Part shown: positions 30,056 to 50,101 of the stretch, piece by piece
How the letters are laid out: the number at the start of each line of letters is the position of its first letter
How positions within the stretch are numbered: the stretch's first letter is position 1
Assembly: GCA_043821365.1 (NCBI GenBank)
Contig: JBDRCX010000006.1
Coordinates: 704,001-768,000, forward strand
DNA from: Candidatus Micrarchaeota archaeon
Lineage (GTDB): Archaea > Micrarchaeota > Micrarchaeia > Anstonellales > Bilamarchaeaceae
Length of the DNA stretch: 64,000 nucleotides
Reading direction: 5' to 3'
Notes under the pieces: model-generated
Seen by the model: only the letters and a program-made list of their open reading frames with translations
Told to the model about the DNA's origin: nothing
The model's database searches: none
Program-made: the position numbers and the translations under genes

Positions 30056-30170
30056 TGGACACGGAGGGATTTGAACCCCCAGCCTTCCACAGTTTGGCAA
30101 ACTAGTTTTGATCAAACTTTTACTAAAAGTTTGGCGCCAAGCGGATGCTCTACCGTTGAGCTACGTGCCC
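30056..30170 (-). tRNA. tRNA-Ala(GGC) with 43-nt 37/38 intron (30092-30134)
   Basis: GGGCACG/CGTGTCC-A with G3:U70; T-loop TTCAAAT; strict BHB (TTGG/CCAA central helix, CAAAC/GTTTG outer helix). Confidence 0.93.
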
Positions 30171-48546: not shown

Positions 48547-49737
48547 ATGCGCAGAAGAATGCACATGGTTCAGATTAAAAAACCTCCATCTCCTCCAACA
48601 CTGATAGGTAAGGCATATTCACCCGAAATGATCCAAAAACTTGTCTCAGAACTTTCCAGTGGAAGTTCTGATAGAGAAATAAAAGCATTTAGCGAGTTTG
48701 TAGATCATCAGGAGCAAGTCTTTTCAAGTATTTCAGATATTCCAGATCTTACAAATACTGAAGTTATTGAACTAATTCTTGCAACTGTTATGCGTTATGA
48801 TGATGAGATTATAAAAAATCTGGAAGCTGAAAAAAAGAAAAAACAACTCCAATTCCTTGCAACTACTCCATATATTCCATTTCCAATACAAGAAAAAGCA
48901 AAAGCAGCAGTAAAGCGTTTGCACACTGGAAAATTTCAAGAAAAAGTTACAATTCCTCCTCTGCATGTTAATACATACAGTCCTAAAAGAGTAGAATTAC
49001 TTGTGCAAAATTTGAATTCAGAAAGAAAAGAACAAAAAATTCCAGCAGCAGTTGAATTTATTCATAATTATCCCCGTATTACTCCAACAGTTTCAAAAAT
49101 GCCAATGCTCACCGTAACCCAGGTGACTACAAAAGCAATCGAAATCATAGATCAAAATCCAAAGGAAGTTATACGTATAATGGTAAGTAAAAAAATGGTT
49201 TCTGAATTGTTTTTTCTGGCTTCCCTTTCTCAAGCGCCACCTAAAATCAGAGATATGGCTAGAAAAGCAGCAGAGACTCTACAATTAAAGTTACGTTTGC
49301 CTTCTCAAAAACCGCCAACCCAAATGCCAAAACAAAGTCCAAAGCCTACAGATGTACGAGTTCAAACACTGAAATTACAAAAATCTTATATGCCATTGGA
49401 ATTGGAAGCTTTAGTTAGTGGTCTTGGAAGTGTGGAGAGTGTCAGGTCAGTAAAAGCAGCGATAGAATTTTTGAAAAACTATCAAATTATAGCTGAGACA
49501 ATTGCTAAAACACCACAGATTACTATAACTGAGGTTACTACTAAAGTCGCACAAGTAGTTGATAATAACCTAGACGTGATCCTCAAAGAATTGGAAAGAC
49601 AAAAAGCAGTTCATGCGGTGAATTTCTTAGCAAATTCTGAAAAGTTTTCAATGGCAGTACGAGAGCAAGCAAAGAAATTATTGGAAAGAATGCAGAACCC
49701 ATTTTACACTGCGAAAAAAAGTGCTGAGAAAAAGTAA
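48547..49737 (+). CDS. Orphan protein with three ~100-aa helical repeats
   Basis: Repeated P..(L/V)..LV..L.S....A..EF...P.(L/I)T.T(E/Q)V...FLA....AKK pattern. Confidence 0.75.
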   Translation: MRRRMHMVQIKKPPSPPTLIGKAYSPEMIQKLVSELSSGSSDREIKAFSEFVDHQEQVFSSISDIPDLTNTEVIELILATVMRYDDEIIKNLEAEKKKKQLQFLATTPYIPFPIQEKAKAAVKRLHTGKFQEKVTIPPLHVNTYSPKRVELLVQNLNSERKEQKIPAAVEFIHNYPRITPTVSKMPMLTVTQVTTKAIEIIDQNPKEVIRIMVSKKMVSELFFLASLSQAPPKIRDMARKAAETLQLKLRLPSQKPPTQMPKQSPKPTDVRVQTLKLQKSYMPLELEALVSGLGSVESVRSVKAAIEFLKNYQIIAETIAKTPQITITEVTTKVAQVVDNNLDVILKELERQKAVHAVNFLANSEKFSMAVREQAKKLLERMQNPFYTAKKSAEKK

Positions 49738-49770
49738 TTATAAATGTGATCTATCATTACTTTCAACTAC

Positions 49771-49998
49771 GCCCCTGTAGCGCAGTCCGCTTTTTAGGAA
49801 AAAGCTTGGCAAAAACTGGTTGTTGTTTTTGTAGTTTTCTAATAAAAAGCAGGTGTTAAGGTAGCGCGCGTCCTTGGTATCGCACCTTTTTTCAAAAAGG
49901 TGCGCCAAAAACTTTTGTAAATAGTGACCCAGTTTTGGGCCGCCTTTTACCAAAAGGCGGAGAGGACGAGGCCGCGAGTTCAATTCTCGCCGGGGGCT
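49771..49998 (+). tRNA. tRNA-Thr(GGT) with D-loop intron (about 49787-49859) and 83-nt anticodon-loop insert (49880-49962)
   Basis: GCCCCTG/CGGGGGC-T73; D-stem GCGC/GCGC; anticodon stem CGTCC/GGACG; T-arm GCGAG-TTCAATT-CTCGC. Confidence 0.88.
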
Positions 49999-50009
49999 TC
50001 TTATTGTTT

Positions 50010-50029
50010 GTGGAAACCACGGTTTCCAC
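50010..50029. repeat. GTGGAAAC palindrome, copy 2, just downstream of tRNA-Thr
   Basis: GTGGAAACC-AC-GGTTTCCAC; matches 3181-3199. Confidence 0.7.
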
Positions 50030-50101
50030 ACCTTTCGTTATCCTTTGGCTAGCACCCTCAGATCGTCTCTAATCATTTATGGCTATTTAGCTATATTTAT
50101 A

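Follow-up and report, generated by a model that had tools for sequence, protein, structure and literature searches.

In Crenarchaeota, the nested introns of pre-tRNAs are known to be spliced in a fixed order; according to the excerpts of PMC3728597 and PMC3978253, Sugahara et al. (2007, RNA 13:671) made the prediction and Tocchini-Valentini et al. (2009, PNAS 106:20246) put it to an in vitro test. In the system that these excerpts describe, a tRNA carries several BHB introns, the last BHB becomes available only after another intron has been removed, and the endonuclease is of broad specificity. The locus analyzed in the present work resembles it in having several BHB introns and a broad-specificity endonuclease, and the folds computed below suggest that its last BHB, too, may depend on an earlier excision. 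The differences, as far as the same excerpts allow the comparison, lie in the arrangement and in the lineage. The crenarchaeal introns sit one inside the other, whereas here two units stand end to end on a single junction (37/38), the 3' cut of the first unit (i1) being the 5' cut of the second (i2). The order of their removal is a prediction in the present case, and the host belongs to Micrarchaeota, with an epsilon2 enzyme, and not to Crenarchaeota.

Disrupted tRNA genes and the same type of enzyme are also found in Candidatus Micrarchaeum acidiphilum ARMAN-2 (Fujishima et al. 2011, PMC3239211; Miyata et al. 2025, PMC12397907). In vitro, the epsilon2 EndA acts on relaxed hBH/BHL motifs as well as on the strict hBHBh' form (PMC3239211), a broad specificity that is explained by an extra loop (PMC12397907). 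Two introns interrupt the ARMAN-2 pre-tRNA-Pro(GGG) at separate, neighbouring sites (53/54 and 59/60), and each has a strict BHB of its own; the work on this organism describes neither a tandem pair at one junction nor introns belonging to a repeat family (PMC3239211, PMC12397907).

In Thermoproteales, near-identical introns in unrelated tRNA genes point to intron mobility (intron transposition; Fujishima et al. 2010, in the excerpt of PMC4090602), and the introns described below resemble them in this. Compared with what the excerpt describes, the mobile unit is different: here it is a hairpin repeat that also occurs in intergenic DNA and is found in both orientations at 37/38 (in tRNA-Val(GAC) of this genome and of its relative G001). 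Organellar group II/III twintrons (PMC8393795) share the concept that one intron is removed before the next is recognised. Twintrons, however, are self-splicing ribozymes, whereas a protein endonuclease and a ligase would act here, and the likeness is an analogy only.

How archaeal tRNA introns originate and move, and how a broad-specificity endonuclease chooses among competing motifs, are unsettled questions. The locus offers a compact natural test, with a strong internal BHB and a weak outer BHB at one shared splice junction, and with natural controls in sister species that have no intron, i2 alone or a hairpin-type intron alone. In the literature searched, we found no account of two end-to-end units sharing a cut on one exon junction, nor of a tRNA intron built up from a hairpin repeat specific to one genus; the search covered nested introns through reviews, and a similar case may be described in the original papers. 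What the locus adds is the tandem case at one junction and the comparison between orthologues, while ordered nested splicing and the ARMAN-2 enzyme were already known.

Results

An interrupted tRNA-Thr(GGU) gene

We analyzed a window of 64,000 nt from the genome of Candidatus Micrarchaeota archaeon (assembly GCA_043821365.1, contig JBDRCX010000006.1, positions 704,001 to 768,000), referred to as G000; the genomes of the same genus (n = 40) bear codes of the same form. The G000 genome has a size of 1.2 Mb, a G+C content of 36% and a completeness of 87%. Positions 49771-49998 of the window, on the forward strand, contain a tRNA-Thr(GGU) gene consisting of three exons of 15, 21 and 36 nt. The features of the locus are listed below; here and in the text, a slash between two coordinates or inside a 3-nt bulge marks a cut.

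49738-49745, plus strand: TATA-like box TTATAAAT, some 29 nt upstream of the first nucleotide of the mature tRNA; putative promoter, from sequence
49771-49785, plus strand: exon 1, tRNA positions 1-15 (5' strands of the acceptor and D stems, A14 and G15), the same in the G001 orthologue
49786-49858, plus strand: D-loop intron, 73 nt, at position 15/16, delimited by the BHB rule and by intron-less orthologues
49859-49879, plus strand: exon 2, tRNA positions 16-37 (remaining D arm, 5' strand of the anticodon stem, loop nucleotides U32 U33 G34 G35 U36 A37)
49880-49910, plus strand: unit i1, 31 nt, made of a T, a hairpin (49881-49891 with 49894-49904) and the tail CCAAAA
49911-49962, plus strand: unit i2, 52 nt, complete member of a 37/38 intron family found across the genus, with its 3' cut site at 49962/49963
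49963-49998, plus strand: exon 3, tRNA positions 38-73 (3' strand of the anticodon stem, variable loop, T arm, 3' strand of the acceptor stem, discriminator U)
49999-50010, plus strand: T-rich trailer TCTTATTGTTTG; putative terminator, on the same basis as the promoter

All stems of the encoded tRNA are intact: the acceptor stem (49771-49777 with 49991-49997, GCCCCTG/CGGGGGC), the D stem (49780-49783 with 49864-49867, GCGC/GCGC), the anticodon stem (CGTCC at 49869-49873 with GGACG at 49964-49968, loop TTGGTAA) and the T arm (GCGAG-TTCAATT-CTCGC). The anticodon GGT occupies 49876-49878, with A37 at 49879 and A38 at 49963. The gene ends with the discriminator T49998, and CCA is not encoded.

The unspliced locus receives no call from ARAGORN in the default mode or from Rfam in the gathering and E-value modes; the lack of any score on RF00005 is expected with two long inserts. 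With both inserts deleted, the gene is recognised by ARAGORN as tRNA-Thr(ggt), and the product has the cloverleaf of the tRNA family (RF00005), consisting of a 7-bp acceptor stem, the D, anticodon and T arms and an anticodon loop of 7 nt. Between this 72-nt product and the intron-less orthologue in G015 (71 bits on RF00005) there are 5 differences in 72 positions, two of which form one compensatory pair in the T stem. In the sister genome G001 the exons are the same, while the matched tRNA/D-intron stretch is 80% identical, which indicates purifying selection. The core of exon 2 (49860-49879) has an exact match, with A or C allowed at one position, in 29 of the 40 genus genomes, and a match with one mismatch in two more. 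No second Thr(GGU) gene was found in the assembly, which is 87% complete. An earlier reading of the locus from the sequence alone (the sequence-only reading) took it for a tRNA-Thr(GGT) gene with a D-loop intron, and this is borne out by the ARAGORN call after insert removal and by the G015 and G001 orthologues. The conservation of the gene suggests that it is functional; it is the sole copy found in the assembly and is predicted to produce mature tRNA.

The existence of the composite was confirmed in other samples. A contig (X2) from an independent biofilm metagenome of another study is identical to the window over 49600-49969, and in a diverged strain (X4) the region 49859-49978 is covered with 6 substitutions and no gaps. 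Misassembly of the locus is ruled out by these two samples.

The TATA-like box directly follows the stop codon of the upstream ORF (48547-49737), which is of unclear family; the downstream neighbours encode FeoB and a DtxR-type repressor. At 50009-50030 of the window, 11 nt past the 3' end of the tRNA, TGTGGAAACC and GGTTTCCACA make up a perfect palindrome of 10 bp around a spacer of 2 nt. Its type of sequence differs from the T-run/A-run hairpins described below, and it may serve as a terminator hairpin or represent a further small repeat.

The D-loop intron

Splice sites were placed by a BHB rule with a central helix (H) of 4 bp, bulges of 3 nt and a cut after the second base of the bulge. 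In the D-loop intron, H is formed by GCGC (49780-49783) and GTGT (49853-49856), and the bulges are AG/T and TA/A. This is a relaxed BHB of the HBh' type, which has no outer helix h. Its long-range helix h' (CCGCTTTTT/AAAAAGCAGG, one mismatch) is formed in the minimum-energy fold. The hairpin module is repeated, imperfectly and in inverted orientation, by the two arms of the intron (49789-49806 and 49833-49850), which are 78% complementary. The D-loop of intron-less orthologues reads AG-N-GGTA. Homologous D introns are found in G001, G025, G022 and others, and the same BHB rule fits those of G001, G025 and others. The intron had previously been described as an inverted doublet of about 73 nt with junctions uncertain by 1-2 nt. 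That description was right, and the junctions are now set by the BHB rule together with the intron-less orthologues.

A copy of the first 38 nt of the D intron (the hairpin and GGCAAAAACTGGTTGTTG), 95% identical, is present elsewhere in G000, at positions 119085-119122 of contig C6. This copy is intergenic; it lies upstream of a protein-coding start and outside any tRNA.

Two units at the 37/38 junction

The second insert, 49880-49962, has a length of 83 nt. The sequence-only reading had divided it into 31 and 52 nt, and the boundary that it drew, 49910/49911, coincides with the exact first base of a widespread family of stand-alone introns. Alignment of unit i2 over its full length with 14 stand-alone introns at 37/38, from 12 genomes, gives a mean column identity of 76%. 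The hosts of the family, as read, are Thr-GGT, Thr-TGT, Ile-GAT, Asn-GTT, Phe-GAA and Arg-CCT, i.e. six anticodons. Three of the 14 reside in orthologous Thr(GGU) genes, those of G038 (47 nt), G020 (54 nt) and G022 (49 nt), and are collinear with i2 from the first base (ACTTT...) to the last (...GGCGGAA). The signature of the family, which i2 carries in full, comprises the 5' segment CTTTTNGGAAA, the core GTTTTGG with the hairpin CGCC-TTTT-NNN-AAAA-GGCG, and an end in A or AA before nucleotide 38. Copies of the 43-nt core of i2 were also detected at the edges of other introns in the G000 genome. Judged by these alignments, 49910/49911 is the true start of a complete intron unit, i2, and i1 is an extra unit between the exon and i2.

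When i1 is taken away, i2 is left with a BHB (BHB-2) that has the bulges TA/A and AG/A, an outer helix h of 5 bp and an h' of about 10 bp. Among i1, i2 and the D intron, i2 after i1 removal is the only one to have both h and h'. Its central helix is TTGG/GCGG, with 3 of 4 pairs possible, two of them G-U. The helix CTTTTG/CAAAAG, which had been claimed for the remaining 52 nt together with this H and the AG/A bulge, is real and extends to about 10 bp with one bulged C (49912-49921 with 49946-49956).

The long-range helix competes with a 9-bp hairpin, hairpin B (49940-49948 with 49952-49960), which is absent from the sequence-only reading. Across the i2 family, 88% of cells in the long-range helix are paired, a share that falls to 81% and 75% if the partner strand is shifted one column. 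The covariation score of the helix is 0.134 against 0.095 for shuffled alignments, a level reached by 4 of 500 shuffles, and the 5' segments fit their own hairpin better than those of other members in 2000 of 2000 permutations, both figures being inflated by the kinship of the i2 copies. In our reading, the X4 substitutions T49918G and T49925C would strengthen the helix. Hairpin B is conserved across the family as well, with a compensatory CG/GC change at the closing pair. Both folds of i2 seem to be maintained. The weak central helix of BHB-2 is, as we read the alignment, probably ordinary for the family: its constant GCG(G/C) end would make 2-3 pairs with most anticodon loops.

The arms of the i1 hairpin have 11 nt each (CGCACCTTTTT/AAAAAGGTGCG), of which about 10 bp can form. 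With U32-G35 of the anticodon loop, i1 makes a 3-4-3 BHB (BHB-1). Its H is TTGG/CCAA, with four out of four pairs Watson-Crick, and its bulges are TA/T and AA/A, with predicted cut sites at 49879/49880 and 49910/49911. The first 31 nt had been said to form a perfect BHB. This holds for H, h' and both bulges, but not for the closure of the 3' bulge by the anticodon stem: in the primary transcript the h' of 10 bp is present, and the 3' bulge is followed by i2 and not by the anticodon-stem strand, giving a relaxed, HBh'-like motif.

In G013, near-identical units of hairpin and tail stand at the start of introns in other tRNA genes. An i1-type intron of 31 nt standing by itself was not found, and a narrow search pattern with fixed stem length, applied to the 40 genomes for i1-like perfect BHBs on a TTGG loop, matched the Thr(GGU) locus only. 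The tail CCAAAAAC is the constant part of the hairpin repeat. In a census of 66 hairpins, which missed i1 with its unequal T-run and A-run and gives a background rate only, closure at the BHB register was not more frequent than at shifted registers. The constancy of the tail and the absence of register enrichment imply that the fit of CCAAAAAC to UUGG may be due to chance.

Another gene of the window, tRNA-Ala(GGC) (30056-30170, minus strand), is the sole tRNA in the window that is seen by Rfam. It contains a 43-nt intron at 37/38 with a strict hBHBh', in which H is TTGG/CCAA as in i1, h' is CAAACT/AGTTTG and the outer helix has 5 bp. A hairpin of this kind, followed by a ATCAAAAC tail, stands at the start of the intron. 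A BHB scan over the ARAGORN loci returned several chance motifs per locus, arising from T and A runs, and only long h' helices are informative in such a scan.

Fold energies of the anticodon arm

We computed folds of the anticodon arm (49869-49968) at 37 C. The minimum free energy is -40.0 kcal/mol, a figure which, like the others obtained at this temperature, says little on what the endonuclease binds. The BHB-1 fold, composed of the anticodon stem, TTGG/CCAA and the i1 hairpin (hairpin 1), has -39.3 kcal/mol and lies 0.7 kcal/mol above the minimum. In this fold the bulges UAU and AAA are open, hairpin B is intact, and AGA forms a 3-nt linker to the anticodon stem. A single-unit BHB on TTGG/GCGG has -32.8 kcal/mol, about 7 kcal/mol above the minimum, and its central helix, which is also that of BHB-2, has a pair probability of about 0 in the precursor. 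The claim that the 83-nt insert does not make one good BHB agrees with these values.

Removal of i1 changes the picture. The minimum-energy fold is then the long-range helix, in which the 5' end of i2 pairs with the loop and the 3' arm of hairpin B, and not hairpin B itself; the h' of BHB-2 is present in this fold and its weak H is unformed. In G038 and G020, the natural i2 introns likewise have the long-range fold as their minimum, and so do the i2 units that lie in Val-GAC of G001, Thr-TGT of G002 and Asn-GTT of G013. In the folds computed, hairpin B might present the 3' site without an earlier excision step.

Splicing enzymes

The G000 genome encodes a three-unit EndA of 393 aa, residues 5-393 of which match residues 4-387 of the ARMAN-2 epsilon2 enzyme (4fz2_A, E = 3.5e-132). 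An epsilon2 EndA is present in 38 of the 40 genus genomes. G000 also encodes RtcB, and ARAGORN in the intron mode finds 27 tRNA genes in this genome, many with inserts of 40-178 nt.

The RtcB match falls into two pieces about 1.4 kb apart (C6:673872-673967 and 675363-676544) within one stop-free stretch of 910 residues; the split could reflect an inserted domain, an intein or an interruption. Besides the 393-aa EndA, an ORF of 163 aa at C6:480404-480895 (L052:1291-1782) has the catalytic tRNA_int_endo domain only (46.7 bits).

Predicted excision of the 37/38 insert

The gene, its exon boundaries, the unit boundary, the presence of the enzymes and the relative fold energies are directly established. 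From them we infer cleavage at the internal site 49910/49911 and an order of events. The features of the locus predict endonuclease cuts at three sites on the 37/38 insert, with products of 31 and 52 nt; we assign this reading a probability of about 0.5. The observation made in the sequence-only reading is confirmed, and the interpretation given to it is partly supported.

Maturation of the Thr(GGU) transcript would need the epsilon2 EndA and the RtcB ligase. The 73-nt D intron would be removed through its relaxed BHB. The 83-nt insert would represent two excision units placed end to end, the hairpin unit i1 of 31 nt and then i2, a complete mobile-family copy of 52 nt. The fold favoured for the primary transcript would pair U32-G35 with the CCAA tail of i1 and present 49879/49880 and 49910/49911 in a 3-4-3 BHB, leaving 49962/49963 in the linker of 3 nt that separates hairpin B from the anticodon stem. 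The 5' splice site would be presented only within BHB-1, and the fixed geometry of the EndA dimer would set the partner cut at 49910/49911. Two routes could follow. In the first, i1 would leave before i2, and re-ligation by RtcB would yield an i2-only precursor that would refold to BHB-2 and be cut at 49879/49911 and 49962/49963. This precursor would be of the same kind as those that G038, G020 and G022 make from their own Thr(GGU) genes. In the second route all three cuts would precede ligation, the 3' site being cut in the linker, and the exons would be joined directly.

Excision in two units is supported by the H TTGG/CCAA, which the locus shares with the strict intron of the neighbouring tRNA-Ala(GGC). 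Several features count against it: BHB-1 has no canonical outer helix on the 3' side, the conserved hairpin B competes with the fold needed for BHB-2, i1-type introns were not found on their own, and the fit of the tail to UUGG may be due to chance. The same doublet build, i.e. a hairpin unit, CCAAAAAC, TTTT... and i2, was moreover found at 37/38 of three other genes:

Val-GAC, G001: doublet of 86 nt, 77% identical over the stretch matching i1 through the 3' exon
Leu-CAA, G023: doublet of 70 nt, with a tail unable to pair with positions 32-35
Asn-GTT, G013: doublet of 109 nt, with a tail unable to pair with positions 32-35

None of the three can form BHB-1, so that removal in one piece must be possible. 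The Thr(GGU) insert might likewise be a single 83-nt intron that is excised in one step by cuts at 49879/49880 and 49962/49963, with the internal AA/A never cleaved. The hairpins would then act as brackets placing a helix beside each splice-site bulge, and the CCAA/UUGG pairing would be a by-product of the constant tail. We hold such a one-step excision to be possible, at somewhat worse than even odds. Besides the three doublets without tail pairing to positions 32-35, it is favoured by the recurrence of CCAAAAAC followed by TTTT in the doublets of other genes, by the position of hairpin B, which abuts the 3' bulge and whose closing pair is kept by compensatory changes, by the genome-wide lack of enrichment of hairpin closure at the BHB register, and by the acceptance of relaxed motifs by the epsilon2 enzyme (PMC3239211). 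The energetic cost of the single-unit BHB and the near-zero probability of its central helix argue against it, as does the identity of the competing TTGG/CCAA with the H of the strict tRNA-Ala(GGC) intron. In addition, the two hairpin stems of the insert are unrelated and therefore cannot make a long-range h' in the way that the D-loop doublet does.

The two units could also leave in the reverse order, i2 being cut out first at 49910/49911 and 49962/49963. Removal of i2 in silico joins CCAAAA to A38 and gives i1 a strict hBHBh', with the anticodon stem as the outer helix, TTGG/CCAA as H, an h' of 10 bp and bulges of 3 nt. In the primary transcript, however, the central helix available to i2 is CCAA/GCGG with only 2 of 4 pairs; i2 has no outer helix on its 5' side, and CCAA/GCGG competes with TTGG/CCAA. 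We consider the reverse order very improbable. A decaying pseudogene overrun by repeats, with no mature tRNA, would account for the failure of standard tRNA finders at the locus, and another Thr(GGU) copy could lie in the missing part of an assembly that is only 87% complete, but this explanation is hardly credible in view of exons shared unchanged with G001, intact stems with a compensatory T-stem change relative to G015, the finding of no other Thr(GGU) gene, the preservation of the composite in two further samples and the similar interruption of most tRNA genes of the genus.

Should two introns be able to leave successively at one site, the genus would provide a concrete case of an intron gained atop one already resident. 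Excision of the 83 nt as a single piece would make the locus simply another repeat-built intron in an intron-rich lineage.

The 37/38 site across the genus

Orthologous Thr(GGU) genes were recovered from 31 of the 40 genus genomes. The 37/38 site has no intron in 11 of them, including the sister genome G001. Introns of 41-62 nt that open with a hairpin occupy the site in G007, G009, G031, G032, G034 and G037. G026 has a mini-intron of 14 nt, and larger composites of 74-185 nt are seen in other orthologues. Yet another state of the site was found in a Thr(GGU) relative from the X4 bioreactor metagenome, which has an insert of about 11 nt (T + GCCCACAA + AG).

In an EndA tree that is partly resolved (19 of 35 inner branches are open; G033 and G034 were left out for their absurdly long branches, probably a product of wrong translation), G000 is sister to G001, which has no 37/38 intron, followed by G024 with its 185-nt composite. 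The three i2-only Thr(GGU) genes fall in three other places of the tree. Their scatter and the intron-less state of G001 suggest that the 37/38 site turns over quickly; with G001 intron-less, the 83 nt were either gained in the G000 lineage or lost in G001. Orthology between i2 and the G038 intron was considered and dropped for the same reasons, namely the three separate positions of the i2-only genes and the lack of a 37/38 intron in the sister genome. The relatives could not be ranked by synteny, the flanking DNA being too diverged. Scans of genome and metagenome contigs for exact 15-mers of the Thr(GGU)+i2 junction returned almost only chance matches, together with one unrelated Thr(GGU) intron of 40 nt.

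The 37/38 intron of Val(GAC) in G000 (C6:214271-214313) is an i2-type element in reverse orientation, and G001 (L292, C9) has a forward doublet at the same Val(GAC) site. Together with the intergenic copy of the D-intron hairpin on C6 and the i2 cores at intron edges, the reversed element points to mobility at the DNA level. More speculatively, and in our estimate rather unlikely as a whole, the tandem pair may be a snapshot of archaeal tRNA introns arising and turning over. In this view the i2 family would act as a small mobile element at the level of DNA; its inverted ends would also serve as h', so that it could be cut from any tRNA that it had entered. A second hairpin copy would have landed at the exon-intron junction and survived because its constant tail completes a second BHB. 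Stacking of introns at one site, followed by their loss one at a time, would explain why sister species have no intron, a hairpin-type intron or an i2-type intron.

In many Thr(GGU) orthologues (L022-L024, L026, L027, L030, L042-L044) the T-loop is interrupted as well, by a third intron that follows GAGTTCAA or GAGTTCGA. Up to three sites of Thr(GGU) are thus interrupted in the genus, the T-loop site being uninterrupted in G000.

Expanded hairpin loops were found in two orthologues. G003 (L022) has a 41-nt hairpin-type intron, as in G007, with an additional insertion of about 54 nt inside the hairpin loop. This insertion holds two further hairpins, and the direct repeat TGGGAA on its two sides looks like a target-site duplication. 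The hairpin loop is similarly expanded in G008 (L026), and these observations point to insertion at the level of DNA.
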